A stretch of 64,000 bases of DNA from Candidatus Falkowbacteria bacterium (lineage in GTDB: Bacteria > Patescibacteriota > Patescibacteriia > UBA11705): assembly GCA_003518055.1 (NCBI GenBank), contig DOZJ01000002.1, positions 55,225 through 119,224 of the forward strand. Direction: 5' to 3'. Below are positions 11,791 through 62,700 of the stretch, in pieces; the stretch's first letter is position 1; every line of letters starts with the position of its first letter. A model generated the notes under the pieces. That model was not told the origin of the DNA and ran no database searches. It worked only from the letters and a program-made list of their open reading frames with translations. The position numbers were made by a program, and so were the translations under genes.

Positions 11791-12933
11791 ATGAGTTCAC
11801 ACGCAGCCAATAAGGTGGGGATTTCCAAACTTTATGTCAAATTCATCGCGGTCTTTGTTGTCTTGACCATAGTGTTGATTTTTGTCATCTTTTATTTTTC
11901 ATTTTCTCGCGCCTTGATCCGCATCACGCCCAAACCGGCGTCGGTCGCGACCGATTTTATCGCCGATATCAATACTCAGGATAATGAACCCACAGCCGGC
12001 ACGCTCAAAGGATTTCTATTTGAAACCGAGGTTGATATGACCAAGGAATATCCGGCCACCGGGACCAAGGATGCGGAGGGCAATGTCATCGGACAGGTTT
12101 CGATTATCAATAAACGGACTGTTAACCAGCCTCTCGTCGCGACTACTCGGCTGATCACGACTGATGGTGTGCTGCTGCGAATCAAAAACCGCGTGGATGT
12201 TCCCGCCGGCGGATCGGTCAATGCTGATGTTTACGCCGATGATCCATCGAGCTTTACCACCTTGGCGGCAACCAAATTTACCATTCCCGGCTTGTCTGAA
12301 AGCCTCCAAAACGAAGTGTACGCTGAGAGCAAAACTTCATTGAATAGCGCTCCCGGAGCGTTAAAAGTAGTCAAATCTGTTGATGTCGCCCGCGCCAAAG
12401 ATGATTTAACCGCCGCTTTATATCAAAAAGCTTTGGCTGATTTTGAAGCCGAGGTCAGCGAAGGTTACGTTGCGGTTTTGGTTGATAAAAAAGTGGTCGA
12501 AGAAGCGGTCAGCGCCGGTATCGATGATGTGGCGGAGACCTTTACTGTCCGGCAAAAGATGAATGTCACCCTGATTGGACTCGAACAGCCGGCGATCGTC
12601 AGCCTGTCGGCCGAGCGGTTGAGGGAACTCGTCACGGGCGAGCGGGAGTTGAGTGAGATAATGTTGGATAAATTAACTTACGTGGTGCAAAATTATAATC
12701 AGGAAAACAAAACCGCCAATATCAAAGTGCACGCCGAAGGTGAAACCGTATTAAAAGAAAACAGTGAAATTTTGGACAAAAGCAAAATCGCCGGCTTGAG
12801 CGACAAAGGGGTGGAATTATATCTCGATAGTTTTGATGAAATCGAATCAGTTGAAGTTCAGCTGTCGCCATTTTGGGTCAAACGCGTACCGTCTTTACCT
12901 GATAATATAGTTATCGAAGTGGTCACGGATTAG
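11791..12933 (+). CDS. Hypothetical membrane-anchored protein (single N-terminal TM)
   Basis: 380-aa ORF with a TM helix at residues about 17-38. No recognisable motifs. Confidence 0.5.
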   Translation: MSSHAANKVGISKLYVKFIAVFVVLTIVLIFVIFYFSFSRALIRITPKPASVATDFIADINTQDNEPTAGTLKGFLFETEVDMTKEYPATGTKDAEGNVIGQVSIINKRTVNQPLVATTRLITTDGVLLRIKNRVDVPAGGSVNADVYADDPSSFTTLAATKFTIPGLSESLQNEVYAESKTSLNSAPGALKVVKSVDVARAKDDLTAALYQKALADFEAEVSEGYVAVLVDKKVVEEAVSAGIDDVAETFTVRQKMNVTLIGLEQPAIVSLSAERLRELVTGERELSEIMLDKLTYVVQNYNQENKTANIKVHAEGETVLKENSEILDKSKIAGLSDKGVELYLDSFDEIESVEVQLSPFWVKRVPSLPDNIVIEVVTD

Positions 12934-17580: not shown

Positions 17581-17607
17581 AAAAAGGCGCTCATTGGGCG
17601 TCTTTTT
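17581..17607. terminator. Bidirectional hairpin terminator (aggcgc-loop-gcgucu flanked by A7 / T5) between thrS and a convergent gene
   Basis: A-run and T-run flank a 6-bp stem. The stop codon of the minus-strand gene (17591-17593) lies in the loop. Confidence 0.5.
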
Positions 17608-18380
17608 GGTCTTTGTTTCGAAACAGCTTTTGCTTTAGCCTCTGCCAAGTTGTCAGTGTCGGCGTTGGCTCAGGTTCAGTGGCGAGTACCGATTCGGCCG
17701 GCTTGATCTTGGCCATTTGCTCTGCGACTGTGATCAGGGTCGCGACGGCCGTTATCACCGTTGCTTTTGGCAGCTGACTGATAGCTGATAGCCGCTGGAT
17801 GCGGCAGCACACCGCCAGCCAGTTCCAGACAGGGAGGTAGTCATCATGGATCTTGTAGGCAAGATTTTGTTTAACTTGGCCCTGCTTCTCAGGGAATAGA
17901 ACCATGACATTCCGAGTATTAGCCGGAAAACTCTTCTGGAATACTCGTTTGTGATGAGGGAGTGCCTCCTTGCCGAAGAGCAGCCGGATTTCTAGGCTGG
18001 TTGTCCGGCGCCAGGCTTCTTCCTCCAATCTAACCACTTCAATCAGTCCAAGATCTCTGAGCTCGGCCTCAACCTTTTCGATTTCTATTGGTTCGGTCTT
18101 GACAATGCCGGCCAGCTTATCGGTCAGCGCGACCAGCAATTCCCGCTGGGTTTCAGTGCCAATGGATTCATTATGCAGTACTTTGAGCACAAATTGGGTC
18201 AGCGTCGTCTTTGGCATGTCAACCGGCTTTTGCCCGTGGTGGGGTTGTTTATCTGCTCTTGAAAGGCTGAATTCAAGCAGACTCGCTCCGTCAGAATCCG
18301 GGGCCTTCAATGGATAAAAAGTTCGTCGCTTGGTCAATGCTTGACGGGCTGACAAGAGGATAACATCCTGATTTTCCATG
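17591..18380 (-). CDS. Hypothetical protein, likely start MENQDV...
   Basis: SD 'aaaggag' 5 nt before the ATG at 18380. The ORF-track start at 18418 is a GTG inside the promoter. GC-richer than flanks. Confidence 0.5.
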
Positions 18381-18408
18381 ATTCGCTCCTTTGGTTGAGT
18401 TACATTGA

Positions 18409-18437
18409 AGCATATCACGAAAGCACAAGTTTGTCAA
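18409..18437 (-). promoter_or_regulatory. Promoter TTGACA-17-TGaTATGCT (minus strand)
   Basis: Reverse complement reads ttgaca-aacttgtgctttcgtga-tatgct. Confidence 0.35.
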
Positions 18438-29156: not shown

Positions 29157-29192
29157 TTGTCTGGTTGACCAATAAAACAAAAATAAAATTTA

Positions 29193-30052
29193 TGATGATG
29201 TCCTTCAAAGAAGTTTTTAAGACGTCTTGGCGCAACGTTTTCAAGTACAAAAGTTTGTGGTTCATGGGCATATTCGTATCCGGCGCCAGCATTCTACTCG
29301 AATATAATCCGGACGATATCAACCAATTTTTTTCCACCCTAGCCTCAGTCGGAGTTATCAATTGGTTCACCGGACTCGCCAAGGCGCCTGCGTTTCTTCT
29401 GTTGATTATTTTAGGCTTGATTTTAGCCGTAGTTTTTGCCTTGATTTCTGTCATTGCCTCAGCTGGATTGCTGGCAGCAGTAGGGCAAATCAAAAATGAA
29501 GCTCGAGCTGATTTTAAATATAATATAAAAGCCGGTCTGAGCCGATTCGCGCCGATGATCGTGGCGGCTGTTTGGTTTTTTATCCCCTTGTTTTTTCTGT
29601 TTATTTTGACGGTTATTTTTTATCAATTTGAGTTGTTTTTCTTGTCGTCATTAGTTGGTATATTGATGTTTGTTTACATGTTTTTCATTTATTTATTCAA
29701 ACACTTTGCTTCATGTTATATCGTGCTGGAGCAGTACCCTGCTTGGGCGGCAATCATGGCCGGTTTTAAATTTTTTATCCGGAATTGGTCTTCGGTATTA
29801 GTCGCGCACTTGATTGATTGGGGTATCCTCTTGGCCTTCTTTTTGGCCAGTTTTCTAATCGCGGCGTTGGTGGCCATCCCCTTTATCCTGATCGGTGCCA
29901 TTTTGATCCTTTTTTCCGGCTGGAGCTTACCGTTTGTCACCATCATGATCGGTATTGTCGTTTATGGTTTAGTCACGATAATTATGTCCGGAATTCGAGT
30001 TTGTTTCTCGTATAACTTTTTAACGCATACATACTGGCAGCTGAAAAAATAA
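29193..30052 (+). CDS. Hypothetical polytopic membrane protein
   Basis: Multiple hydrophobic helices. ATG at 29193 is preferred over the TTG at 29165. Confidence 0.5.
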
Positions 30053-38241: not shown

Positions 38242-38709
38242 TTATTCGCGAACCACGTAAGTTTTCGCGATCATGTCATGCAGGCCTTGTTTTTTCTTGG
38301 TCCAGAAAATTATCAAAAAGCCAATGCCGAGGGTGATACCGCAGACAATGCCACCAACAATTTGTCTCAGCAGGACGACCGCCCACCAATTCATCTTGTT
38401 CTCATTTGCTTCTTTGATTAATTTCAATTTCAAAGCCATCATGCCCAGTGTTTGCTGCTTCAAAGCCAAGAAACAAATCACATAAACCAATCCGATCAAG
38501 CCGCCAAGATTGTTGGTCGCGTTTTCTGACATGAATGAACCGAGGATTCCGATCACAATCCCTAGAATTATCGCATCGATAATGTAGGCCAGAAATCGAA
38601 TCCAGCCACCGGCATAATGCGGTCCGCCGAGCGCCGGTTTTGACATGTCCGGTTGAGCAGCCATTGGCGTTGCCGCCGGCATCGACCCTTGAGATCTTTG
38701 TTCGTCCAT
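38242..38709 (-). CDS. RDD family membrane protein
   Basis: 'WIRFLAYIIDAII' and C-terminal 'QGLHDMIAKTYVV' typical of RDD domains. Confidence 0.7.
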   Translation of the reverse strand: MDEQRSQGSMPAATPMAAQPDMSKPALGGPHYAGGWIRFLAYIIDAIILGIVIGILGSFMSENATNNLGGLIGLVYVICFLALKQQTLGMMALKLKLIKEANENKMNWWAVVLLRQIVGGIVCGITLGIGFLIIFWTKKKQGLHDMIAKTYVVRE

Positions 38710-39147: not shown

Positions 39148-39432
39148 TCAATGGGTTTGACTTTCAACCAGTGTTTCTCTAATCATTTGCCTTAAAGTAG
39201 TTTTTCCTTTTGTTGTTTTAAAATATTTTTCGCGGCGCAAAGCGTCTTTTTTTGAAAGGTAGGCTTCGTAAAACACCAAAATCATTGGTAGCCTTTTGGC
39301 GGTAGAGACATTTTCGCCTCTCTGATGTTCAAGAACCCTTCGGTCAACCTCAGCCGAATATCCGATATAAAATTTATTATCCTTCAAGCTTTGAAGAACA
39401 TAAACGTAATAGAATTTTTTCACCATACTCAA
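39148..39432 (-). CDS. GIY-YIG nuclease family protein
   Basis: 'YVYVLQS...KFYIGYS...R...H' GIY-YIG core. 94 aa. Confidence 0.8.
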   Translation of the reverse strand: MSMVKKFYYVYVLQSLKDNKFYIGYSAEVDRRVLEHQRGENVSTAKRLPMILVFYEAYLSKKDALRREKYFKTTKGKTTLRQMIRETLVESQTH

Positions 39433-39493: not shown

Positions 39494-39567
39494 TGGCTCG
39501 AGGCCAGGGATTCGAACCCCGATAGCTGGGACCAAAACCCAGAGTCCTACCATTAGACGAGCCTCGA
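39494..39567 (-). tRNA. tRNA-Gln (anticodon UUG)
   Basis: Hand-folded cloverleaf, 74 nt. Acceptor UCGAGGC/GCCUCGA with U1-A72 and G73 (GlnRS identity elements). D-loop AAUGGUA. Anticodon loop UUUUGGU. T-arm CGGGG-UUCGAAU-CCCUG. CCA encoded. Confidence 0.8.
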
Positions 39568-39883: not shown

Positions 39884-40249
39884 ATGAGCTACAATCAGTT
39901 AACACCTGAAGAAGAAGCGGTTATCGTTCGCAAGGGGACTGAAGCGCCATTTTCAGGGGAGTATAATGAACACTTCGCGGCCGGCAGTTATCTCTGCCGC
40001 CGCTGCGGCGCTGCACTTTATAAGTCCAAAGACAAATTCAAATCCGATTGCGGCTGGCCGAGTTTTGATGATTCTGTGCCGGGCGCGGTTGTGCGGCTGC
40101 CTGATCCCGACGGTCTGCGCGTCGAAATCCAATGCGCCAACTGCGGCGCTCATTTGGGCCATATGTTTGCCGGCGAGAACTATACCGCCAAAAACACTCG
40201 TCATTGCGTCAATTCATTATCAATGAAATTTATTCCCGCCAAAAAATAA
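39884..40249 (+). CDS. msrB: Peptide methionine-(R)-S-oxide reductase
   Basis: Two CxxC zinc pairs and 'GHMFAGE...RHCVNS'. Confidence 0.9.
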
Positions 40250-40264
40250 TTAGTCAAAATATTT

Positions 40265-41872
40265 ATGTCCAAATCAACCATGGAATCGGCTGCGATGCCG
40301 GCTGCGGCCGGAGAGAAACAAGAAACTAAAAAAGAAGATCGAATTGAAACCCTGCGGGAAAAAGCGCGGGAAAGACTTTTCTGGAGTGGTGAAACGCCGG
40401 TAAATAAATCAGGGTTCTATTTGCCGACTTACATTTATCCCGATGTGGAGATCGAGCGGTCTTATGATTATGAAATAGTTCAGGAGCTGTGCGACAAAGA
40501 ATACCAATCCAGAAAGGCCTATGCATTTGATCCTAAAACCAGCGCGCTTTATTTGGTTCGAGAAAAGTTAGACCGGTATGGCGAATATTATGATGACCTA
40601 TCTGAGGATGAGATTCCGCCATCAGATCCTGTATACAAAAAAATCAAGGAAATGCATGACAAAGATATGGCGGTCTTAACGGCCAGAAATGAATTAGCCG
40701 ATGCTTTGTCCGGCGGCGATGCCCTGCTGCGAAAAATTATCAGTTTGTCTATAGCCAAAGATGGGGAAGTCCAAATCATGAGAATGCGGGGCATTGAGTT
40801 TTTCGCTGTGGGCGAAAATTCCAGTCATCGATTTTATCTCGGAGTCAAAGACGGCAAGCTGTTTAGATATGCGACTACCGGCGATGAGGTTTTTATCGAA
40901 GATCAAATCGCTGTGGCGCAAGAAGAAATTGACGCTACGGTCGAACAAGCAGAATTACTAGCGCGCATGGATGACCGTGAGTTTGAGGCGTATGTCACAA
41001 CCAAACAACAGGCCCAGACCGAAAGGCTGGCCGGATACAACCATCAGGATAATGAACGGTTTTTGCCCCAAACCATCAAGCAGATTCAGCAGGAAAAGCA
41101 GATGGCCGAATATTTGTTGACGCATAACCCAAAAAATACCTTGCAGCTTGACCGGATTGTGAAACTCATCAGGGCGCTGGCCGCTCACGTTAATGAACCT
41201 GACGCCAGAGCTGAATTGGCAGCGGTGACAAATGAACCTGAAAAAGTCGATTTTACCGCCTTGTTAGAGACCCATGCGGATGAACCGGATGATCAAATCT
41301 TGGCGGCCGCCAGAAAATGTATTAAAAAATGCCTGCCGAAAGTCAAGACTGCTGAACAGATCACCAAACTGGCCGAAGAATACCTAACCAGAAATACCTT
41401 TTCCAATTTTGGTAAAGTTGAAGATCCGGCACAAACCCAAAACAGGCTTCAAGAATTACGCGTTGGACTGGAGCATTTGCGCGTAGAGGGTGAGATGTAT
41501 CTGCAAATGACGCCGGAGGAGAAAGCTGAGCATATCTCCGGAGCTGCGGCAGCCAAAGTTGATAGATTTATTGATAGGATAAAAAGCGATTTGCGCTCCC
41601 GGTTTTATGCTGGTGATGATTATGAAAGTATTGATTTTGATCAGCCTGTAGATCCGGTAACAGAACAAATGGTGGAGCATTTTATCAGACCCGGCAGCGC
41701 TATTCATGAGATTGATGTCAACCAAGAAGAAGAAATATATATAGACCGCGGCACTTTTCTCAATTTGAAAGATTTGACCATTACCGATCCCCGAGAATTG
41801 TGGGCTGAGGCGATAGAGATAGCGACCGCTAAAATGGAGCGCTCTGAGCTTCCGGATGATGAATTAAATTAA
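40265..41872 (+). CDS. Hypothetical acidic cytoplasmic protein (535 aa) inserted between msrB and msrA
   Basis: No motifs recognised. Helical, acidic. Confidence 0.5.
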   Translation: MSKSTMESAAMPAAAGEKQETKKEDRIETLREKARERLFWSGETPVNKSGFYLPTYIYPDVEIERSYDYEIVQELCDKEYQSRKAYAFDPKTSALYLVREKLDRYGEYYDDLSEDEIPPSDPVYKKIKEMHDKDMAVLTARNELADALSGGDALLRKIISLSIAKDGEVQIMRMRGIEFFAVGENSSHRFYLGVKDGKLFRYATTGDEVFIEDQIAVAQEEIDATVEQAELLARMDDREFEAYVTTKQQAQTERLAGYNHQDNERFLPQTIKQIQQEKQMAEYLLTHNPKNTLQLDRIVKLIRALAAHVNEPDARAELAAVTNEPEKVDFTALLETHADEPDDQILAAARKCIKKCLPKVKTAEQITKLAEEYLTRNTFSNFGKVEDPAQTQNRLQELRVGLEHLRVEGEMYLQMTPEEKAEHISGAAAAKVDRFIDRIKSDLRSRFYAGDDYESIDFDQPVDPVTEQMVEHFIRPGSAIHEIDVNQEEEIYIDRGTFLNLKDLTITDPRELWAEAIEIATAKMERSELPDDELN

Positions 41873-41888
41873 CCTCTAAATCAACAAT

Positions 41889-42425
41889 ATGAAAAATGAA
41901 GCCATTGTCTTTGGCGGCGGTTGTTTCTGGTGCACTGAGGCGATCTTCCAGCTGGTCGAGGGCGTGAAAAATGTAATTCCCGGCTACACCGGCGGTCATG
42001 TCGAAGATCCAACCTACGAGCATGTTGGCAGCGGCAGCACCGGCCACGCTGAAGTGATCAAACTAGAATTTGATCCTGACGTTATTAGTCTGGAAAACTT
42101 ATTGAGGATTTTTTTTGAAGCCCACGATCCGACCGTTGAAGACAAACAAGGCCCTGACATTGGCAATCAATATCGTTCGGTTATTTTTTGGACCGACAGC
42201 AGCCAATTATCGGTGATCAAACCATTGATGATTGAATTACGCAAAAAACTAGGGCAAAAAATTGTTACGCAGGTTGAAGCCCTGACCCATTTTTATCCGG
42301 CTGAAGAATTTCATCGTGATTATTTTCACAAAAACCCCAATAAACCATATTGCGCCTTGAACATCGCACCGAAAGTTCGTAAGTTAAAAAAGTATCTTGA
42401 AGATAACGGCTGGCTGAAAAAATGA
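41889..42425 (+). CDS. msrA: Peptide methionine-(S)-S-oxide reductase
   Basis: 'AIVFGGGCFWCTEAIF' active site. Confidence 0.9.
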   Translation: MKNEAIVFGGGCFWCTEAIFQLVEGVKNVIPGYTGGHVEDPTYEHVGSGSTGHAEVIKLEFDPDVISLENLLRIFFEAHDPTVEDKQGPDIGNQYRSVIFWTDSSQLSVIKPLMIELRKKLGQKIVTQVEALTHFYPAEEFHRDYFHKNPNKPYCALNIAPKVRKLKKYLEDNGWLKK

Positions 42426-42461: not shown

Positions 42462-43004
42462 TTATCGTTGGCACAATTGTTCCATTTTTTTCCAGAGCAT
42501 CATCAGCTTATCAAATCCAAATTCCTGCTGCACCCGCCGTTCTAATTCGCCCTGTTCCCAATACCCGAGTTCCACTAGGGCGCAGTTAAACCGGTTTTGC
42601 GGCGGCGTGACCGTGGTTTCAGCTTCGCGGCAGGGAATCGTATCGGCCACAGCCGCGATCAATTCATCAAGTGAACCGCAATATGGACAGCCGGCGCAGA
42701 GCCAGTCATTGAGCATCGCCTGATACATCCGCCGTTGATGATTTTCATACCAAAGATTGAATGAATTCGGAACCGCGTCATCAACGGAGAGTCCAAATCG
42801 GCGGCAGCAATCATCAATAAACTGCCGGCGGAAACCGTCGACTTGATCAATCACCTCCATTTGCTTTACCAGCATATCATCACTGGCGTCATCGAGCCCA
42901 GCTTGCGCCTTTGCCAGATAGACTCTCAGTCCCTCAATCATCTCAAAGAATTCTTTCTCAGTCTGTGGATCGGGAAACAGGTGTAGTGCCATGAATCCCC
43001 CCAT
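42462..43004 (-). CDS. Hypothetical protein (CxxC-containing)
   Basis: About 176-180 aa. G-rich SD. Consensus promoter upstream. GC-richer. Confidence 0.5.
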   Translation of the reverse strand: MGGFMALHLFPDPQTEKEFFEMIEGLRVYLAKAQAGLDDASDDMLVKQMEVIDQVDGFRRQFIDDCCRRFGLSVDDAVPNSFNLWYENHQRRMYQAMLNDWLCAGCPYCGSLDELIAAVADTIPCREAETTVTPPQNRFNCALVELGYWEQGELERRVQQEFGFDKLMMLWKKMEQLCQR

Positions 43005-43218: not shown

Positions 43219-43632
43219 ATGTCCGCTGATACTCTAGTTGGAGCTATTCTTCTTGGCCTCTTGGTTTGGTTGATAATTTATAGAGCTCGCCGGTCCCGCC
43301 GTCTGCGCGTTGATCATCTCAATCACTACACAAGGATACTTGAAGCGATTCATGACAAGGGTCACGCTGATGCCGCTGCCCGCAAGGAACGAAAATCGCA
43401 TTATGATATCAATGACTCGGAACTAAAAGGGGTAAGGCAGGAGTTGGTTGATGCTTTGAATCATAGTTATCTGAGCGGCTTTGATGATTTCAATAAGGGA
43501 AAGCCCAGTTTTTATTCTCTTTACGAGAAGCAGAATGAATTGCTCCAGCAAGAATTGGATGCCCTCAAAGCCCGGCTGGATGAGCTCCGCCATCCCAAGC
43601 CGCCGCCCAAGCAGCTCGAACTCAAATTCTAG
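43219..43632 (+). CDS. Small membrane-anchored coiled-coil protein
   Basis: N-terminal TM. SD 'aaaggag'. Leu-heptad C-terminal region. Confidence 0.5.
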   Translation: MSADTLVGAILLGLLVWLIIYRARRSRRLRVDHLNHYTRILEAIHDKGHADAAARKERKSHYDINDSELKGVRQELVDALNHSYLSGFDDFNKGKPSFYSLYEKQNELLQQELDALKARLDELRHPKPPPKQLELKF

Positions 43633-43655: not shown

Positions 43656-43804
43656 TTAATTATTCTTTCTATTTTATTCACACCGGCGGGAGTGTCTGGT
43701 TTGAATCCGAGGAAAATCACGGTTCAACCTTCTACGTGTCTTTGCCGCTTTCGGGCATGAAAGAAAAATCCGGTGCTAAAGCCCTCGAAGCCTGAAGTTC
43801 AGAA

Positions 43805-43830
43805 CAAAAAAACCAACCTTATGTTGGTTG
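43805..43830 (-). terminator. Terminator hairpin for the minus-strand gene (aaccaac-auaag-guugguu + U7); the stop codon sits in the loop
   Basis: Reverse-complement reading. Confidence 0.5.
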
Positions 43831-45045
43831 CCCCGAATGTGTTATCGGGTAATTGACTGCGATTTTGGCTGTTTGCAGCGCTTCAATCAATTTGATGATA
43901 TTGGGGTTATCCCAATCAACAAAGAGATCAGCCGGGAAAAGGAGTTTGAGCAGCGGCAGGCTTTGCTGCAGCCGATATAGATGATGGTTTTCCGGTCCAA
44001 ACGATAGTTTCCGATTGAAGTAATGATCGAATATAAATAGTTGGACTTCCAACACTTCACCTTGAACATATACTAGAAACTGCATCTCGGGCGGTGACAC
44101 GGTGGATGAATATTCGTTGCGCCGCTTTCCTCCATGTCCATTGATTTTAACGTTTGAAATTACGGCGCCGTTGCCAAAAATTCCATGAGGTTCGGTCATC
44201 CGTTCATAGGCGGCGTTCAAATCATCTCTAGAGAAAAAGACCATCGTGATGCCGCACGCGTCATTATTGATCGGCAGCTCGGCTTTGCTCTGAACTAGGG
44301 TTTTGCGGAAATTATCTTCTTCTTTTTTAATGCGGCTGTCATACAAAACCTTGATTAGGCGGTTTTCGGTATTTATAAATCGATACCACAGCGCTAGGGT
44401 CAAACAATTTTGAGTTTCATCGCACGCGCCCAGCCCCGCAAACCGATTGAGGTTGGCCGGGTCATATCTGACCGTAATGTTTTCTCTGTAGGGTTTTTCC
44501 ACCTGCTCGGCCACAAACAGATTTTTTTCGAGCCAAAGAGTGAGACCGCTCAGCTGTCGTGAATAGTCTTTGTGGTGAATGCGCATCATGAGAAATCTGA
44601 TCCCAAGATGCCAGTAAACCAGAGCCACGAAGGATCTCATCCGTCGGTAGCGTTCATCTCCGGGCGGCCGCCAGATAATCGTCAAAATTTCGGCCGGATC
44701 AATCGTTGGGTTGATGATTCCGTCTGATGTGAACGGGAACCGAATGGCATCGGGGACAAATTCGCGAATCAAGGCTTGTTTGAAATCCTTGACCGCCGCG
44801 ATTGCCTGCCTGAAATTTTCATACAAGTATTTTTTCTCAATTTTTTCTCCGGTTGTCAGGTGCAGCCAATCAGCGATGGCTCTTCTGGCTTGGTCCGCGC
44901 TTTTTTTCTCCACTTTCTGGTATAATGAATACAGGGACCTCAGATGTGTCCACGCGATCGGATTTTCAATCCTCAGCTTGGTTTCATCAGTGAGGAACAT
45001 TTGCGTCAAGTCAGTGGGCTTGAGCAGGGGCGCTACATCTTTCAT
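43819..45045 (-). CDS. Hypothetical 408-aa protein, isolated on the minus strand; C-terminal half weakly nucleotidyltransferase (RelA/SpoT- or Pol-beta-)like
   Basis: Preferred start MKDVAPLL after SD 'aaaggagg'. 'DACGITMVFFSRDD' and 'EVQLFIFDHY' are only loosely reminiscent of the Syn2/Syn4 motifs. Confidence 0.5.
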   Translation of the reverse strand: MKDVAPLLKPTDLTQMFLTDETKLRIENPIAWTHLRSLYSLYQKVEKKSADQARRAIADWLHLTTGEKIEKKYLYENFRQAIAAVKDFKQALIREFVPDAIRFPFTSDGIINPTIDPAEILTIIWRPPGDERYRRMRSFVALVYWHLGIRFLMMRIHHKDYSRQLSGLTLWLEKNLFVAEQVEKPYRENITVRYDPANLNRFAGLGACDETQNCLTLALWYRFINTENRLIKVLYDSRIKKEEDNFRKTLVQSKAELPINNDACGITMVFFSRDDLNAAYERMTEPHGIFGNGAVISNVKINGHGGKRRNEYSSTVSPPEMQFLVYVQGEVLEVQLFIFDHYFNRKLSFGPENHHLYRLQQSLPLLKLLFPADLFVDWDNPNIIKLIEALQTAKIAVNYPITHSGQPT

Positions 45046-45089
45046 CCAGCCTCCTTTGTCCGAGCATTTTTGTGAGTTTGCCAATAATT

Positions 45090-45118
45090 ATTATATTGAA
45101 GTTATATTATTCTGTAAA
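45090..45118 (-). promoter_or_regulatory. Promoter TTTACA-17-TATAAT (minus strand)
   Basis: Reverse complement reads tttaca-gaataatataacttcaa-tataat. Confidence 0.45.
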
Positions 45119-45165
45119 GCCGGCACTTGATCTCGTCTTGCCATCAAAATTTCAACGAACAATAT

Positions 45166-46113
45166 ATGAAGTATATTTTTTCTTCAATCGGAATAGTCAT
45201 AATCTTGATTCTGATGGGATTATCTTGGGCCTTGTATCAAGATAATAGTTCAGCGGTCGTGCCGGTCACCACATTTAGTGAGTGTGCTTCAGCCGGATTT
45301 CCGGTTCTGGACGGTCCCGTGCGCAAATGCGCCATCGATGGTCGGGTTTTTATTGAAGACAGCCTTGGCGATGTTATTATCGACAAAAACGGCTCATTGG
45401 TTATTATGAAACCGCAATCAGAGCAAGTAGTGACCAGTCCGCTGGTGATTCAGGGGCGAGCGGTCAAAAGCGTCTTCACTTCCGGCGGTCTTGGTTTAGA
45501 GGTTTATGACAACGACGATGTTTTGCTTGGTCGGGATTTGCTTGATCTTGTACCCGAGGCCGCCGACGTCACCTATGGACAGTTCACCGCCGCCATTGAG
45601 CTTGAGCGGACCGATCAACCACGCGGTTATGTCATTGTTAAACCGACATCCGAGGCGGACAACAACAGCGTCGAGCCGATTATAATTCCCATTGCCTTTT
45701 CCGCCGATACCTGGCCGGCCTCAGATTTAGTTGAAACCACAATTTTCTTTCACAACCAAAGCTTGACTCCCGCTGATTCTGGTGATTGCGGTATAGTTTT
45801 CCCGGTTTTTCGTTCAGTCGCGGCGTCCGATGATTTAAGCCTCGAATCCCTGTCAGCATTGGTCAATGGACCCACTGATGAGGAGCGGGCCGCCGGATAT
45901 ACCACATCTTTCAACAGCCGTGTTGTCATTCAGGATCTGCAAATAGCCGATCGGGTAGCTTATGTTGATTTCAACGACCAATTCAGCCGTGATGTCTCGG
46001 ATGAATGCCGCGTTCAGGCTTTGACGGAGCAGGTCAAACAGACAGTGCTTCAATTTCCGGGTATTGATGACGTAAAAATTTCCGTCAATGGTCAATTTGA
46101 TGATATTTTTTAA
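45166..46113 (+). CDS. GerMN/Gmad2-domain secreted protein
   Basis: C-terminal 'VAYVDF...LTEQVKQTVLQFPGIDDVKISVNGQ' is typical of GerMN. N-terminal anchor. Paralogue of 49889..50839. Confidence 0.55.
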   Translation: MKYIFSSIGIVIILILMGLSWALYQDNSSAVVPVTTFSECASAGFPVLDGPVRKCAIDGRVFIEDSLGDVIIDKNGSLVIMKPQSEQVVTSPLVIQGRAVKSVFTSGGLGLEVYDNDDVLLGRDLLDLVPEAADVTYGQFTAAIELERTDQPRGYVIVKPTSEADNNSVEPIIIPIAFSADTWPASDLVETTIFFHNQSLTPADSGDCGIVFPVFRSVAASDDLSLESLSALVNGPTDEERAAGYTTSFNSRVVIQDLQIADRVAYVDFNDQFSRDVSDECRVQALTEQVKQTVLQFPGIDDVKISVNGQFDDIF

Positions 46114-46839: not shown

Positions 46840-47937
46840 ATGAAACAACGCTACAAAGTTTTGTTGCTATTTCTGATTATTTCGCTCATTCCTCTTGTGA
46901 TGTCAGTCGGTTGGGGAGTCTATACCGTTAAGCAAGCCCAAGATGAGGGGTTTTCTTTTCTCCAAGCGCAGATTACACGGGCGGTGAGCAATAATATGTC
47001 ATTGTATTTTCAGCAGAAAATTGAAAACACCTCTATCCGAGTGGTCCAAGAGGGCGCGAGTGACATCTCCGTCGAGGACCAACAATTTATTTTGACCGGC
47101 CTTTTGGCCAAGGATCAGGGTTTGGTTGAAGCCTCAATCGTCAATCGCGGCGGAATCGAAAAAAGTAAAATGGTTAGAGGCGCGCAGGCTTTTATCATGA
47201 GTAATACCAATTTTGCTGATCAAGAATTTTTTCATCTCAATCGCGGCGGTGAGTATTTTGTTGATTCAATTCAAACAACAGCTGCAGGGAAAACGGTGTT
47301 GATCGCCTCGCCCATATTGAGTTCTACCGATGAATACCTTGGAAGTTTGCTTGCCAGATATAACCTAACCGAAGTTAAAAATATTTTGGATGAAGTCACT
47401 CAAAGCGGCCACGGTTATGCTTATGTCGTGGATAAGGCCAAAAATCTGCTCATGACCACCCACAATGTTGATGGCTTAAAACTTAATGTCGGGCTTGGAA
47501 TTTTTGCGTCTGATTCTAAGTATCAAAAATTCCTGCTTGAAGGGGAAGATGTTTATTCCGGCCTTCAGGGCAGTCTGGTTCACGGCACCATCGACAAGCT
47601 GCCCGGTGTTGATTGGTGGCTGGTGGTGGAATGGCCGGTGGCTGATTTGTCCGACATCATTCGTGTCAACTTAATTCAGCTCGCCATTTTAACGTTGATT
47701 GTTTTGCTTGTTTCCGCAGTCGTGAGTCTAATCTATATTAATCGCGTGAACAATCAATTCAACCAAGTGATCGAAGGCGTTAAAATTATTGACAAGGGCA
47801 ATCTGAAATTCCGGATCAAAGCTCCGACCAATGATGAGTTGGAGGATCTGGCTACGGCCGTGAATAGTCTCGCCGATAAACTGGAACGATGCCAACCAGA
47901 GGGAGAAGATAAATCCAAATCCGGATCAGCATCATAA
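46840..47937 (+). CDS. Membrane sensor-like protein: periplasmic Cache-like domain + HAMP, no output domain
   Basis: Two TM helices bracket an extracytoplasmic domain. A HAMP-like amphipathic segment follows the second TM. The protein ends there. Confidence 0.45.
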   Translation: MKQRYKVLLLFLIISLIPLVMSVGWGVYTVKQAQDEGFSFLQAQITRAVSNNMSLYFQQKIENTSIRVVQEGASDISVEDQQFILTGLLAKDQGLVEASIVNRGGIEKSKMVRGAQAFIMSNTNFADQEFFHLNRGGEYFVDSIQTTAAGKTVLIASPILSSTDEYLGSLLARYNLTEVKNILDEVTQSGHGYAYVVDKAKNLLMTTHNVDGLKLNVGLGIFASDSKYQKFLLEGEDVYSGLQGSLVHGTIDKLPGVDWWLVVEWPVADLSDIIRVNLIQLAILTLIVLLVSAVVSLIYINRVNNQFNQVIEGVKIIDKGNLKFRIKAPTNDELEDLATAVNSLADKLERCQPEGEDKSKSGSAS

Positions 47938-48693: not shown

Positions 48694-49143
48694 TTACTCG
48701 TTCCAGTTTTCAGGCTGCATCTCAAAGTCGGTCGGTTTCCAGACGACGACCGTGCGGTCAAAGTCTAGTCCGGCCTGTTTCAAATACCATGCAAAGGCTT
48801 CCACCGCCAGCCCACGGTTAATCGCGTCAGAGTTAACCACGATGTCCGGCAGGAACGGCCGATCATCGTCGGTGTGGATGACATAGTCAAGGTTCGAGAA
48901 GGTGTTACCAGCCTCAAAGTCCGCTGCCACGCGGGCGGCCGCATCAAGTCCTGCCGCTTCAGCGTATTTGCGCCACCGGGCAGCATCCTCCTCAAAGCTG
49001 ATCCTTCCCAGAATGGTGAAACGATACAGTCGCTGTTCACCTCGAACCCATACAGTCACATCAAAATCATCCCATGGTACGGTAGATGTCTGATGATTCG
49101 CAAGCGGTCCGAGCGTCGTTACCGTCAATCGCAGCTTCTTCAT
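48694..49143 (-). CDS. Hypothetical protein (GC-rich islet, gene 2 of 2)
   Basis: 149 aa. SD 'gggagg'. Confidence 0.55.
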   Translation of the reverse strand: MKKLRLTVTTLGPLANHQTSTVPWDDFDVTVWVRGEQRLYRFTILGRISFEEDAARWRKYAEAAGLDAAARVAADFEAGNTFSNLDYVIHTDDDRPFLPDIVVNSDAINRGLAVEAFAWYLKQAGLDFDRTVVVWKPTDFEMQPENWNE

Positions 49144-49888: not shown

Positions 49889-50839
49889 ATGATGAAAAAT
49901 CTTTTACTTGTTATCATTATCGTCCTTTTGGCCGCTTTGCTTGGATTGGCCGCGTTCTTTTACTTCGGTGAACGCGCTGCTGAGCCGACTGACAATACTA
50001 ATTCTACTACTGATATCACAGACGTCGCGAATGGGGCCAATGGTTCTCGAAGCGATGATTCAAATACAAATTCTGATCCTCGAACAAACCAGCCGTCGAA
50101 CACTCGTCCGGTTGATGAGTTAATTCGGGTGGTCAGTCCGAAAGTGGGGGACACTGTGTCCAACCCGATCCAGTATAGCGGTGAAGCCCGCGGTCAATTT
50201 TATTTCGAGGGCAGCTTTCCGGTTCGGCTGGAGACACCGAGTGGAAAAATTATCGCTCAAAGTTTCGCGACCGCTCAGGGTGAATGGATGACCGAGAATT
50301 TTGTGCCTTTTACCGGTCAATTGACTTTCAATTATGCTGATATTGAAGACGGTCGCCTTAATTTGGTATTTGAAAAAGATAATGCCGGTGACTTGCCTCT
50401 GACCGCCAATGACCGCAAGGTTATTGCGATCTATATTCAGGACGCGCCGGATAGAGTTTCTTTTAATGTCTATTTCCTCAACGACGACCTCGATAACAAC
50501 CCGAACTCCTGCGCTGAAGTCTTTCCCATAGTGCGCAGCGTTCCGTTTACCCAAGCTGTGGCCCGAGCCGCGTTGGAGACTCTGATCGAAGGCCCTGATG
50601 GCTTGGAATCAGAATCAGGCTACACCAGCGTGGTGCCGACAGCGACGATTAATTCGTTGGCAATCAATAATGGTACTCTAACGGTTGACTTCCGTGGTAA
50701 TAGCAATGACTGGAGCGGCGGATCATGCCGAGTCACCGCTATGCGTCAGCAAATCCTGCGTACCGCCAGTCAATTCCCGACGGTGAATAATGTAGTTATC
50801 TCCGTCAATGGTGAAGTTGATACGATTTTCCAACCATAA
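49889..50839 (+). CDS. GerMN/Gmad2-domain secreted protein (paralogue)
   Basis: Same C-terminal pattern '...VISVNGEVDTIF'. N-terminal TM. Confidence 0.55.
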   Translation: MMKNLLLVIIIVLLAALLGLAAFFYFGERAAEPTDNTNSTTDITDVANGANGSRSDDSNTNSDPRTNQPSNTRPVDELIRVVSPKVGDTVSNPIQYSGEARGQFYFEGSFPVRLETPSGKIIAQSFATAQGEWMTENFVPFTGQLTFNYADIEDGRLNLVFEKDNAGDLPLTANDRKVIAIYIQDAPDRVSFNVYFLNDDLDNNPNSCAEVFPIVRSVPFTQAVARAALETLIEGPDGLESESGYTSVVPTATINSLAINNGTLTVDFRGNSNDWSGGSCRVTAMRQQILRTASQFPTVNNVVISVNGEVDTIFQP

Positions 50840-58131: not shown

Positions 58132-61100
58132 ATGTCAGAAGGCGTCTCATACAATTCAAAAATTTCTCATGAGCTAACCGAATCCAAATCCGTCTTGGAA
58201 TCGGAGATTGAACTCATGGGCAATTTAAATCTTGCCAAAAAATATTTTCGAGAAGAAGAGGCTTTTATTTCCTATCTGAAAGAATTGAAAGGGCAAGAAG
58301 AAGAAAGCCAGAAAAAAAAGACCGACCTCCCGTTTGATCTTGATATCGAAGCCAAACAATTGGCTGAAATGCTGGCGGTCAAAGCTCAAGACAACATTGT
58401 TGGCAGTTTTTTGTTGTCCCTCGCTGGAGGCAGCCGGCTTTGGGCCCAGACCATTAAGTATTATCTTGATATGATCGGCGCTGATTGGGATGAATGGCAC
58501 CGATTGGGCCGAGATATTGAAGGACACGTGGAGTATGATTGGGATTTTCGATCCCGGGATCAGGCTCATGCTCTTGGGGCTTGTTTCAGAAATTTTGATT
58601 TTGACGGTTCGTATGATGTTGAAAGACTGCAGGTTTCGTTTGGTAGCCCGGAGCGGTTTCAAAACAAAAGGAACATCATGTTTTCTCGCTTTATCCGTTT
58701 TGGTCAGCAGCATATCAAGGCTGAATACAGGGAAGTTCAATCAGCTTTGTCATCTGTCTCAATCATCTCGGCCGACAGAATTGCGGACCGCTCATCTGAG
58801 TTGGTTGAAAATATTTTAGCAGGCATCCATGCCAAGCCTTATTCTGACCAAATACAAAATTTGACCAAAATGATAGAGACAGGCCTTGGCGATATTGTTT
58901 TGTTTCATTTGGAAGAATTTAAAATTCAGGATTCCGACCGGTCAGATTTGATTTATTCCATTGGTTCTCATGATCCGGAATTATTTTTTGCTCATTTTGA
59001 TGAATTCAATCTCATTGGACACGCTCAAGCTGAAGAGTTGTTTATGAATCTCTTGGACCGAGAGCCAAGGTTGGCTTTGGCTCACTTGGAGCAGTCTGGT
59101 TTGGATCCCAATCCGGTTATCGACTATCTGATTCACAATCACCCTAAACTTTTTATTCATTATTTGGATGAATTTCTGGTGACTCTGATCCCCGAAGGCA
59201 AAATGGCAGAGTGTGTTCACGCTATCAATAAATATTTTGACCGGCTTTATACCGGAAATCCGGCTAGAGCTGTCAATGAACTCTATGGCTTAAAAATCAA
59301 TAATCCGGTTATTAATGGTTTGATTGAAAAATATTATCTTGAAGCACTTCAAATATTTGTTCCTGATGTATATCAAGAGTTGTTAAAAATCCAGTCCGCT
59401 ATTGAAGACGAAGATAAGGATATAATTTTTTCCAAAAATCAAGATTTCCAACCGGTAATCAAATATTTTAAAGAGAAAGGTTTAAATCGGGGCTACGCTG
59501 ATATCCTTGCTTTGGCCGTTGCCGCAGATGATAAGCTGAGGACCATTAAGGCAACATATAATGGTCATGAGTATGATGAAGACATTAGTTTTCGTTATGG
59601 CGCGTCGCATTTTCGGGATGCTGACAATAGGATTGTTCCGGGTCATAGTTCATCTGAGGTGGTTCATCGTTATCTCATTGATAAATTTGTCCGAGAGGAA
59701 GACTGGCATAATGCTATCCATAGCTGGGTGGCCTTTTTCCGAGATGGGATGACGGCCAACTCGAACGATCTCGAGTTTTTTGAAGATCTGTTATTCAATG
59801 TATTGAGATCTGCGCCTGAAATAATTATGAATACTGCAATCTTGGAAGATCTGCCGAAATATCGATTTCCTCGGGAAAAAGAACTTCTTGATATCATGGT
59901 CAAGTTGACGGACGATTGGTTCTTTTTCCAGTCTGGTAAAAACGCCGAGGCTTTGCGCAGCCGGTTGAGCGAGTCGCAAAAATTGACTCTGATCAATAAA
60001 CTCATAGAGCAAAATCCGGTTTATCTGGCTGAAAAATTCAAATTGATCAGGCTCAAGAACAAAAAACAGGAATATGAGATGTTGCGCCGGTTGATCAGGG
60101 ATGGGATTGAACCGTTTAGCTATTTTTCTTCTCCCGGCCAAGCGCTCAAAATTTTACTGGCCAGCAATGTCGGTCGTTTGTGGGACGGCTATCAAGATCC
60201 GGAGCACAGGCGGGAAATAATCAGCCATCTTTTATCCATCAAGGATACGATCTCTCCGGAGACTTGGGATTTTATTCAATCAATTCAAAAAGAATCACAT
60301 CGTTCCTATGATATCAGTCAATTGTCCTTAGACAGCTTCAAAGCAATTGACTATGTTCGCCAAAATAAGCCTGAAATTTTTCAAAAGCTACAGGGACCGA
60401 GAGCTGACTTCAGGCTCAAGATGTTTGAATGTTTCGAGCGGCTTAATACCCAAAATGTCAATCAGCTGACGCGCATTTTGTCGGATATAGAAGAACTATC
60501 AGATGGTATCGAGTCTAAATTACGTCGAAAGGTTGAATCGTATTCTGTTGTTCGCAACGCTGCTCCGGCTGAGAGAGAGAGAATCATTAAAGATCAAATT
60601 CAAGCAGCGATTCACAATCTCAAAGAGCCCGAGAGAAGTATATATGGGACTCTGCGTTCAGCTTATAGTGATGAGGTCTATGATTATATCGCCTTGGCCT
60701 TGGCCACTCAAAGAAAATTGCCTGATTTGATTACTACAATCAATAAAGTTCAGGAAGGCCTCAAGGATGAATCGTCAAAGCGCTATATTTCCGAAGACAA
60801 GCTTTTAGATTTTTGTTTGCGGGACAATCAAATCACAGCCAGATACAACTTGCTCAGAAACAATGTTAGTCAATTAAAAGCATTCAATATATTATTTGGA
60901 GATAATTTGTTTGAATCTCCGTTTCAAGGCGGGCGACAGGAATTGCTGTACTTGGATCTGTTATTTGATGCCCCCCCGGACAGACAGCAGGCGATTTTGG
61001 GCGGAGCGGTTGACTTTGATTCACTGAGCCGCGGGTTGGAGCGGGTTGAAGTTATCAAGTTGACTTTGCAGCTGCTGCCATATTTGGAGTTTGAAAAAGG

Positions 61101-62700
61101 CCAAAGTGAAGTGGAGCTTTTTCAGGGGTATATCCGAGAATTTGGCCTCCTAAATGAGCCTGTAATTTTTTCTGAATACAAAAAAATCAAACAAGGCAGT
61201 GCAGTTTCTCCTGCCTTTGCTTCCTTGGGGGTAAAAAATTTGCCGGCAGTGGCCGGGGAATCAGAAACTGAAGCCAATCGCCGAATCAGCCGGATGCTCA
61301 ATAATATCAGGCACGTGATGAGGCAGCTGAGAGATGATATTATTTTGACCGGCGAAATCAACCCTGACCTTTTGACCAATGACTTAGCTTTGGCTGTTTT
61401 TCGGTCCTCTACTCATTTTGATGAAAGTCAATGGCGCCGGTCATATAGTTTTGAAAAAATGATTGCAGAATTTTATCAAGAAACGGATCAGGGGCTGATT
61501 GCCCCCTTGCCTCGGGAATACCGAGCTGAAATTTTCACGGTTAAAAAGCTGGCCGATGAGAATGAAATTCCGGAGTTTGAATTTTCAGAAGTATCAGCCA
61601 GTCAATTTGAGCGTTTTATCGCTGTCGCCAATGAAACTCTGCGTTTGATTGATTTTCATGGATCAGGCCCGGCTGCTTTCAGAGAAATTGCCACTCGCTG
61701 TCAAGCTGGTTTGCGTGAGTATCTGGACAGTTTATCAGCCAATCTTGAACAAACAAAATCCAACTCCAGTCTGCCGGCAGATAAAAAGGAAAAAATTATC
61801 TCTAGTCTGGAGTCACAGTTTAAAGCTCATCAACAGCTATTCCTAGCTCTGGATCACCCTGAAAACATTGTTCAGGCTTTAGCTGATTTTGAAATTCAGC
61901 AGCAAATTAAAAAAGAGAATAAGTATACCAGTCCCTTTTTACGTTTAGCTTCTCTAGTGGCCAGTTATGGGCAGGATCCCAAAGTGGCCGACCTTCTGCA
62001 GAATATCTCCAAAGAAGATGACATCAATTCGGCGGCCTTGCGTCAAATTGGTGAGTTGGTCAACAACAATTTAGCTCAACATGCATTGCCCGCTTTAAAT
62101 TTATCTAATAAACAGATCGCCAAGATAAGACAAATATTGGGCATATCGACATTTAGCGATGAATTGTCTCGGATTCAAGGTTATGAAAGCGGCCGGTTTG
62201 AAGAGTTCGGCATGCTGCCCACCCGTGGTTTTCTCGGAGAACTCAGCGGTTATTATTGCGACGCTTGCTGGACCAGCCGCACTTCTATCATGAAGGCAAA
62301 CCCTCGAATGACTGCGGTGGCGTTTGTCGGTAATTTGGAAAATGAAGCTCAGCGCAAAATTGTGGGTGGCAGTCTTTTGATTGAAACCGAAGCCGGCGGC
62401 GAAAAAGTGATGATCATTCGAGGCTTCAACCCAAAACAAAATACTCTGGCCGGCGCCAATGCTGAAGATTTTTTTGAACAATTTTCCAGTTCTGTGGCTA
62501 GAATTGCCAAAGACCGCGGCTGCACCAAAGTGATTGCTCCGGTTTTTAATCCGGGGGCCATGAGCAATCGTCAGGAGGTGTTGAGTTATATGGATAAGCG
62601 TTATAGCAAAAGTAAAAAGGTAAAACTTGATGAGGAGATATCTTTCAATGGTTATAATCTGGTTACCAGTTGCGTAGTAATACGCGATTTAAAGTCTTAA
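58132..62700 (+). CDS. Giant hypothetical cytoplasmic protein (1522 aa), no recognisable domains
   Basis: Uninterrupted frame. Largely helical-looking. C-terminal about 200 aa Gly/Cys-containing globular region. No signal peptide. Confidence 0.7.
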   Translation: MSEGVSYNSKISHELTESKSVLESEIELMGNLNLAKKYFREEEAFISYLKELKGQEEESQKKKTDLPFDLDIEAKQLAEMLAVKAQDNIVGSFLLSLAGGSRLWAQTIKYYLDMIGADWDEWHRLGRDIEGHVEYDWDFRSRDQAHALGACFRNFDFDGSYDVERLQVSFGSPERFQNKRNIMFSRFIRFGQQHIKAEYREVQSALSSVSIISADRIADRSSELVENILAGIHAKPYSDQIQNLTKMIETGLGDIVLFHLEEFKIQDSDRSDLIYSIGSHDPELFFAHFDEFNLIGHAQAEELFMNLLDREPRLALAHLEQSGLDPNPVIDYLIHNHPKLFIHYLDEFLVTLIPEGKMAECVHAINKYFDRLYTGNPARAVNELYGLKINNPVINGLIEKYYLEALQIFVPDVYQELLKIQSAIEDEDKDIIFSKNQDFQPVIKYFKEKGLNRGYADILALAVAADDKLRTIKATYNGHEYDEDISFRYGASHFRDADNRIVPGHSSSEVVHRYLIDKFVREEDWHNAIHSWVAFFRDGMTANSNDLEFFEDLLFNVLRSAPEIIMNTAILEDLPKYRFPREKELLDIMVKLTDDWFFFQSGKNAEALRSRLSESQKLTLINKLIEQNPVYLAEKFKLIRLKNKKQEYEMLRRLIRDGIEPFSYFSSPGQALKILLASNVGRLWDGYQDPEHRREIISHLLSIKDTISPETWDFIQSIQKESHRSYDISQLSLDSFKAIDYVRQNKPEIFQKLQGPRADFRLKMFECFERLNTQNVNQLTRILSDIEELSDGIESKLRRKVESYSVVRNAAPAERERIIKDQIQAAIHNLKEPERSIYGTLRSAYSDEVYDYIALALATQRKLPDLITTINKVQEGLKDESSKRYISEDKLLDFCLRDNQITARYNLLRNNVSQLKAFNILFGDNLFESPFQGGRQELLYLDLLFDAPPDRQQAILGGAVDFDSLSRGLERVEVIKLTLQLLPYLEFEKGQSEVELFQGYIREFGLLNEPVIFSEYKKIKQGSAVSPAFASLGVKNLPAVAGESETEANRRISRMLNNIRHVMRQLRDDIILTGEINPDLLTNDLALAVFRSSTHFDESQWRRSYSFEKMIAEFYQETDQGLIAPLPREYRAEIFTVKKLADENEIPEFEFSEVSASQFERFIAVANETLRLIDFHGSGPAAFREIATRCQAGLREYLDSLSANLEQTKSNSSLPADKKEKIISSLESQFKAHQQLFLALDHPENIVQALADFEIQQQIKKENKYTSPFLRLASLVASYGQDPKVADLLQNISKEDDINSAALRQIGELVNNNLAQHALPALNLSNKQIAKIRQILGISTFSDELSRIQGYESGRFEEFGMLPTRGFLGELSGYYCDACWTSRTSIMKANPRMTAVAFVGNLENEAQRKIVGGSLLIETEAGGEKVMIIRGFNPKQNTLAGANAEDFFEQFSSSVARIAKDRGCTKVIAPVFNPGAMSNRQEVLSYMDKRYSKSKKVKLDEEISFNGYNLVTSCVVIRDLKS

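Follow-up and report, generated by a model that had tools for sequence, protein, structure and literature searches.

RelA/SpoT homologue (RSH) enzymes are a central bacterial switch of stress response and growth rate, and the roles of the residues in their motifs are established in the RSH literature. Long RSHs combine the synthetase (SYNTH) domain with HD hydrolase, TGS, ZFD and ACT domains. RelQ/SAS1 and RelP/SAS2 are single-domain SAS proteins of about 200-230 amino acids. In the structures of SAS1 and RelP, the arginine five positions after the Syn2 aspartate stacks on the adenine. The extra domain of CapRel is a C-terminal regulatory domain. A catalogue of RSHs holds 30 SAS, 11 SAH and 13 long-RSH subfamilies, the SAS having been found with RSH HMMs (PMC7229694), and the toxSAS (FaRel, FaRel2, PhRel, PhRel2 and CapRel) have a bi- or tricistronic antitoxin arrangement and a toxicity on expression that the cognate antitoxin or a SAH hydrolase neutralises (Jimmy et al. 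2020, PMC7229694). According to one study, (p)ppGpp synthesis genes are annotated in most Saccharibacteria (PMC6031116), so canonical RSHs do occur among the CPR. In the full texts searched on Patescibacteria or CPR and ppGpp, alarmones or the stringent response we found nothing on the RSH-like family described here.

The window, i.e. the whole stretch of DNA analysed, covers 64 kb. The gene under study lies at 43819..45045 on the minus strand and codes for a divergent RSH protein of 408 amino acids plus stop, starting with ATG, the length also given in an earlier note made from the sequence alone; the longest alternative, a TTG start at 45084, gives 421 amino acids. That note described it as the only large minus-strand gene. 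This holds for genes of at least 400 amino acids from about 31.5 kb to the window end, but smaller minus-strand neighbours are found at 42462-43004 (180 amino acids), 38242-38709, 39148-39432 and 48694-49143, as well as the tRNA-Gln gene at 39494-39567. The 48 homologues carrying conserved motifs and a structural model of pLDDT 94.9 show that it is a real gene.

The expression signals listed in the same note were all located. A sigma-70-like putative promoter, TTTACA-17-TATAAT, is found at 45118..45090 (minus strand) and matches the consensus at 11 of 12 positions. Such a match counts for little alone, because the 5-kb region holds 15 sites with at least 9 of 12 matches, against 8.1 +/- 3.3 in shuffled sequences. 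Counterparts are present in two relatives: the orthologue at locus L001 (68% identity) has TTTACA-17-TAAAAT at the equivalent upstream position together with AAAGGAGG, and the family gene at L011 has a TTGACA/TATATT pair and AGGAGG upstream. We infer a promoter role for the site. The Shine-Dalgarno sequence AAAGGAGG at 45057..45050 (minus strand) stands 4 nt before the ATG and is conserved in these same two relatives. At the other end, an intrinsic-terminator-like hairpin, AACCAAC-ATAAG-GTTGGTT followed by a T-run, occupies 43803..43829 (minus strand), with a 7-bp stem at 43829..43811 and the TAA stop codon in the loop. The arms ACCAAC/GTTGGT and the T-run also occur 3' of the genes at L001 and L003 (49-68% amino acid identity), which supports a real terminator. 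Since promoter, Shine-Dalgarno and terminator signals recur in relatives, the gene reads as a monocistronic unit.

Single-sequence searches of Pfam, PADLOC and the PDB sequences gave no match for the window protein, in Pfam not even at E 10. The sole NCBIfam match, to 4a-hydroxytetrahydrobiopterin dehydratase, is at chance level (15 bits, where the cut-off is 108). The gathering score of Pfam RelA_SpoT (PF04607) is not reached by the window protein, and sub-threshold matches to this model were found in just 8 of 53 family members, the best at E 0.0053. A word-indexed search of 5.8 billion proteins returned 7 relatives at 44-100% identity, and repeating it with the profiles A1 and A2 gave essentially no further relatives. 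Exhaustive HMMER searching of 1.84 billion representatives returned 48 proteins at E <= 1e-3, including 17 at E <= 1e-30. All residue conservation counts given below were made on an alignment of 53 sequences, whose columns are on average 20% identical.

Nearly all members have 370-480 amino acids and can be aligned along most of the sequence; the two-domain architecture is thus shared by the whole family. The gene is single-copy in every locus seen. Source names, where given, are 'hypothetical protein' or 'uncharacterized protein' (UniProt A0A2H0V816, A0A1F7U894 and A0A1F7ULK1 included), and the named hosts are Candidatus Falkowbacteria, Uhrbacteria, Magasanikbacteria and 'Patescibacteria group bacterium'. 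The first three are candidate phyla placed in GTDB class ABY1. One member, 49% identical to the window protein and found on a 175-kb contig (L005, CAYPSS010000003.1), comes from a MAG labelled 'uncultured Gammaproteobacteria', while all other named members are Patescibacteria; either the binning or the label may be wrong, or this is a genuine exception.

The AF2 model of the 408-residue protein reached pLDDT 94.9 and pTM 0.90. An earlier model made from 7 sequences had a pLDDT of 64.6, yet already ranked RSH domains first, with the same ranking as the better model. Residues 177-408 (43822..44517, minus strand) form an RSH synthetase-like (SYNTH) domain by both fold and profile comparison; in the model, its core is preceded by an additional beta-hairpin region (residues 187-225). 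The nearest structural neighbours are RSH synthetase domains: B. subtilis Rel 8acu (score 8.5, 169 residues aligned), SAS2 6fgk (8.2), SAS1 5dec (7.8), RelP 6ewz (7.6), SpoT 7qpr and 7qps (7.4 and 7.3), CapRel 7ztb (6.9), B. subtilis Rel 6yxa (6.8), SaSAS 8vx3 (6.6) and RelA 5l3p (5.8). Below a step down come cGLR1 and Pol mu (both 5.1) and Tas1 (4.9).

Profile comparisons gave the same assignment. The 53-sequence profile searched against the PDB sequences found B. subtilis Rel at E 1.5e-5, pairing ydsRvKkeedafrK...DlcgiklVff with fsGRPKHIYSIYRK...DLLAVRILV; this value is borderline, because hmmsearch reported only one of two PDB entries that have the same Rel segment. With hhalign, the family was compared to a Rel/RelQ alignment that we built ourselves from sequences verified against the PDB, and this gave 93.1% probability and E 3.1e-7 over 151 columns, with EVQ paired to EVQIRT and ENHHLYR to AAHWAYK. 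The top BFVD match is a RelA/SpoT protein of a phage. Fold and RSH homology are thus well supported. A Pol-beta/CD-NTase identity, for which an hG[GS] motif, a [DE]-x-[DE] catalytic pair and nearest fold neighbours among Pol-beta, cGAS or CD-NTases would be expected, was also tested and rejected; cGLR1 and Pol mu rank below the RSH domains. Of the two kinds of nucleotidyltransferase that the earlier note proposed, the RelA/SpoT type therefore stands, as a synthetase domain in the C-terminal half, and the Pol-beta type does not.

The motifs of the synthetase domain can be followed one after another along the protein, using RelSeq numbering checked on the 1vj7 alignment. The Syn1-like segment R238-I-K240-K-E-E-D-N-F-R-K248 (44302..44334, minus strand) has the form R-x-K-x7-K and aligns to GRPKHIYSIYRK of B. 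subtilis Rel. Its basic residues align with R241, K243 and K251 of RelSeq, which contact the ATP phosphates; K240 is found in 53/53 sequences, R238 in 50/53 and K248 in 49/53, with Arg in three more. The Syn2-like strand D262-A-C-G-I-T-M-V-F-F (44233..44262, minus strand) aligns to DLLAVRILV, and its D262, present in 53/53, is the counterpart of the Mg2+-binding aspartate (RelSeq D264, FaRel2 D90). The arginine expected five positions on is replaced by Thr267 in the window protein. This position is T or S in 20 of the 21 near-clade members and K or R in 17 of the 32 distant ones. Compensation for the lost arginine by R247 was considered, and the association is not significant (Fisher p 0.08) and is confounded by phylogeny.

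A possible counterpart of the Syn3 motif N-G-Y-x-S is N310-E-Y312-S-S314 (44104..44118, minus strand), a reading by eye in a region where hhalign is not clean. It would correspond to N306-G-Y308-Q-S of RelSeq, in which the tyrosine stacks on the acceptor, and to Y128 of FaRel2; the FaRel2 mutants D90G and Y128A are a further source for the roles of the aspartate and the tyrosine. N310 is kept in 48/53 sequences and position 312 is Y, H or F in 37/53, and the trailing histidine of G-Y-x-S-x-H is absent. The Syn4-like E333-V-Q335 (44041..44049, minus strand) aligns to EVQIRT and to E323-x-Q325 of RelSeq, with E333 in 53/53 and Q335 in 39/53; the R-T pair of E-x-Q-x-R-T is absent. Finally, H354-H-L-Y357-R358 (43972..43986, minus strand) was aligned by hhalign to the H-W-A-Y-K of RSHs (H354 in 52/53, Y357 in 53/53, R or K at position 358 in 48/53).

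Five residues, K240, D262, E333, Y357 and P371, are invariant in the 53 sequences, and R222, R238, K248, N310, N353, H354 and F177 are conserved in at least 90%. Because the residues for Mg2+, catalysis and triphosphate binding are near-invariant across sequences about 20% identical, the pattern reads as that of an active enzyme. The peptides quoted in the earlier note, FRKTLVQSK (246-254), DACGITMVFFSRDD (262-275) and EVQLFIFDHYF...HHLYR (333-358), are all present, and its loose comparison with (p)ppGpp synthetase motifs proved sound: they hold the counterparts of Syn1 (R-x-K...K), of the Mg-binding aspartate of Syn2, and of Syn4 (E-x-Q) together with H-x-x-Y-K. Neither of the outcomes that the note named as speaking against it was found, as both kinds of search, by profile and by fold, assign the protein to the RSH family and not to an unrelated one, and D262 and E333, the acidic residues, do not vary in the 53 sequences.

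Residues 1-176 (44518..45045, minus strand) form a family-specific, all-helical N-terminal domain, modelled by AF2 with very high confidence. It contains a conserved, non-helical loop, R94-E-F-x-P...R-F-P-x-T-S-D-G...D-P...P-P-G-D130, the core of which (EF/Y-x-P, SDG, DP) is kept in distant clades. Given the pTM of 0.90, the domain is predicted to pack tightly, in a fixed position, on the catalytic domain. It probably regulates the catalytic domain or contributes to substrate binding.

The family does not fit into any of the RSH groups compared here. With the SYNTH domain of long RSHs (B. subtilis Rel 8acu/6yxa, RelSeq 1vj7, SpoT 7qpr, RelA 5l3p) it shares the fold at 13% identity. Unlike the long RSHs, it has none of their four further domains; its first 176 residues form a helical domain unrelated to theirs, the Syn2 arginine, the Syn4 R-T and the Syn3 histidine are missing, and the hairpin region 187-225 is additional. 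SAS proteins (5dec; 6fgk, 6ewz) reach the Pfam RelA_SpoT threshold, whereas the window protein does not, and at 408 amino acids it has an obligatory extra domain of 176 residues. Compared to CapRel(SJ46) (7ztb), FaRel2, PhRel2 and Tas1 (6ox6), the extra domain of the family is N-terminal and helical. The toxSAS differ further in their antitoxin arrangement, the window gene being monocistronic, and in their setting: the family lacks a TA or defence-island context, a PADLOC match and a phage association, and is linked to ndk and housekeeping genes. As it falls outside the Pfam threshold, the Syn2 arginine pattern and the SAS, long-RSH and toxSAS groups alike, we file this two-domain family as a new variant inside the RSH superfamily, with all named members in Patescibacteria apart from the label of L005. 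It would probably fall below RSH HMMs such as those used for the catalogue.

Gene neighbourhoods were compared in 19 independent loci with usable flanks, 10 from distant clades and 9 from the near clade. In 9 of the 19, the family gene has ndk (PF00334) no more than 1.4 kb away, namely in 8 of the 10 distant-clade loci and 1 of the 9 near-clade loci; assuming a genome of about 1 Mb, chance would bring a single-copy gene to within 2 kb at a rate of roughly 0.4% per locus. On the same strand, ndk is upstream by 88 bp in L009, by 77 bp in L013 (where MazG follows two genes downstream), by about 0.6 kb in L033 and by about 0.5 kb in L036, and L020 has ndk, Nramp and the gene on one strand. L017 has ndk upstream with a 61-aa ORF between. 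ndk is downstream and convergent in L015 (274 bp, with IMPDH upstream) and in L035 (about 0.8 kb). The sole near-clade case, L019, branches deepest in the window's clade and has the gene, a 131-aa ORF and ndk. The linkage is lost in the rest of this clade, and ndk is absent from the whole 64-kb window.

The ndk loci are not independent events, because they share about three recurring arrangements: NusB-ndk-gene, ComEC-lactamase_B-ndk-gene and gene/ndk/UvrD. Still, ndk has been kept across proteins of 20-30% identity and through changed orientations, and this retention speaks for a functional tie to NDP/NTP metabolism. In the (p)ppGpp cycle, Ndk takes GDP to GTP (PMC7552824). By tblastn, no canonical RSH was found in the 376 kb of loci, a scope of flanking loci and not of whole genomes.

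All-against-all blastp of the flanking ORFs gave no small partner ORF shared among the 19 loci, also not between or beside ndk and the gene; one syntenic pair only was found, and it is unrelated to TA systems. No defence genes recur among these loci, PADLOC gave no match, and a search of viral contigs returned no family members. The earlier note had seen a flavour of toxic small alarmone synthetases and of defence or TA modules. This part of it was not borne out: there is no PADLOC match, no conserved small neighbour and no viral copy, and the context is a housekeeping chromosomal one with recurrent ndk.

In its gene content the window resembles a CPR chromosome, with genes for DnaE, ThrRS, CTP synthase, an EPSP-synthase-family (MurA-like) protein, the rhamnose pathway, MsrA and MsrB, and with many orphan ORFs. 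Several features were recorded for their own sake. At 43688-43786 (plus strand) a PAS-HisKA-HATPase histidine kinase is reduced to its last 33 codons. In L001 and L004 an intact kinase of 475 amino acids is convergent with the orthologous gene, and the remnant is 67% identical to residues 442-474 of that kinase; the kinase gene has been deleted in the window lineage and the adjoining 137-aa gene (43219-43632) kept. An operon-like, head-to-tail group at 39884-42425 (plus strand) consists of msrB (39884-40249), an acidic 535-aa ORF (40265-41872) and msrA (41889-42425). The middle ORF is an orphan with no significant Pfam match, its one match (E 0.0097) being at chance level and below the cut-off. 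Paralogous Germane/Gmad2-domain proteins at 45127-46113 and 49889-50839 (both plus strand) flank a block syntenic with L001, which holds a 117-aa ORF, a dCache-HAMP protein (46840-47937) without kinase or output domain, and several orphan ORFs. A 1522-aa ORF at 58132-62700 (plus strand) has no Pfam match at E 1e-5, nor at this threshold do the ORFs at 11791-12933, 17591-18418 (minus strand) and 29165-30052. Lastly, a 94-aa ORF at 39148-39432 (minus strand; KFYYVYVLQS…KFYIGYS…) looks by eye like a stand-alone GIY-YIG protein and adjoins the only tRNA gene of the window, tRNA-Gln(TTG), at 39494-39567 (minus strand).

For the function, we lean, with modest confidence, towards a two-domain, cytoplasmic and catalytically active RSH-type alarmone-like synthetase of 408 amino acids with a housekeeping role. 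By analogy with Rel, RelQ and RelP, ATP-Mg2+ would be bound via R238/K240/K248, D262 and E333, and the beta-gamma pyrophosphate would be passed to the 3'-OH of an acceptor, a purine nucleotide stacking on Y312. The product would be of the alarmone type, (p)ppGpp or (pp)pApp, and the N-terminal domain may regulate the catalytic domain or complete the substrate site. Catalytic activity is suggested by the residue conservation, and the acceptor and the physiological role by analogy and by the ndk linkage. The genes being chromosomal, monocistronic, single-copy and, in distant clades, mostly beside ndk, the evidence speaks for a housekeeping protein of nucleotide-pool signalling or metabolism and not for a toxin. 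A toxSAS-like growth-arrest or anti-phage effector, built as a fused toxin and regulator in the manner of CapRel, would agree with the fold common to CapRel and the family, but it finds no support in the genomic context and we regard it as quite unlikely.

The altered motifs bear on two other explanations. Loss of three features, namely the Syn2 arginine, the R-T that follows E-x-Q and the Syn3 histidine, would also be expected if this RSH-fold enzyme acted with NDK on another acceptor or by another chemistry, i.e. pyrophosphorylation or nucleotidylation in CPR nucleotide salvage, and were not an alarmone synthetase. The large conserved N-terminal loop 94-130 could then form a new substrate pocket, and linkage to ndk, IMPDH and MazG fits a metabolic role equally; we nevertheless judge this unlikely. 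The replacements in the window clade (T267, no R-T, no Syn3 histidine) could also be those of an inactive nucleotide-binding regulator, a pseudo-enzyme like degenerate RelA/SpoT domains, but with D262, E333, R238, K240 and K248 invariant or nearly so among sequences about 20% identical, that seems very improbable. Charge (pI), used as a proxy for tRNA binding, is inconsistent between clades and not decisive.

The reading as an alarmone-like synthetase can be extended. The family may have been missed by annotation, as it lies below every curated profile, and since the Syn2, Syn3 and Syn4 motifs are altered, a non-canonical product is possible. We put forward, as a tentative and somewhat doubtful proposal, that it is the main or only alarmone synthetase of the CPR lineages concerned (Falkow-, Uhr- and Magasanikbacteria and relatives), coupled to NDK, with a new N-terminal sensor and maybe a non-canonical product.

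The family was missed by the curated libraries tried (Pfam, NCBIfam and PADLOC), and the 53-sequence alignment could seed a profile for annotating such genes in CPR genomes. The recurrent ndk linkage provides a concrete and testable hypothesis. If the protein is active, it would add a two-domain architecture to the RSH repertoire and give a handle on how nucleotide pools are sensed or controlled in ultra-small, host-dependent CPR bacteria that rely on salvage. If it is in addition their main or only synthetase, a whole group of CPR lineages would possess an unannotated switch of the stringent-response type.
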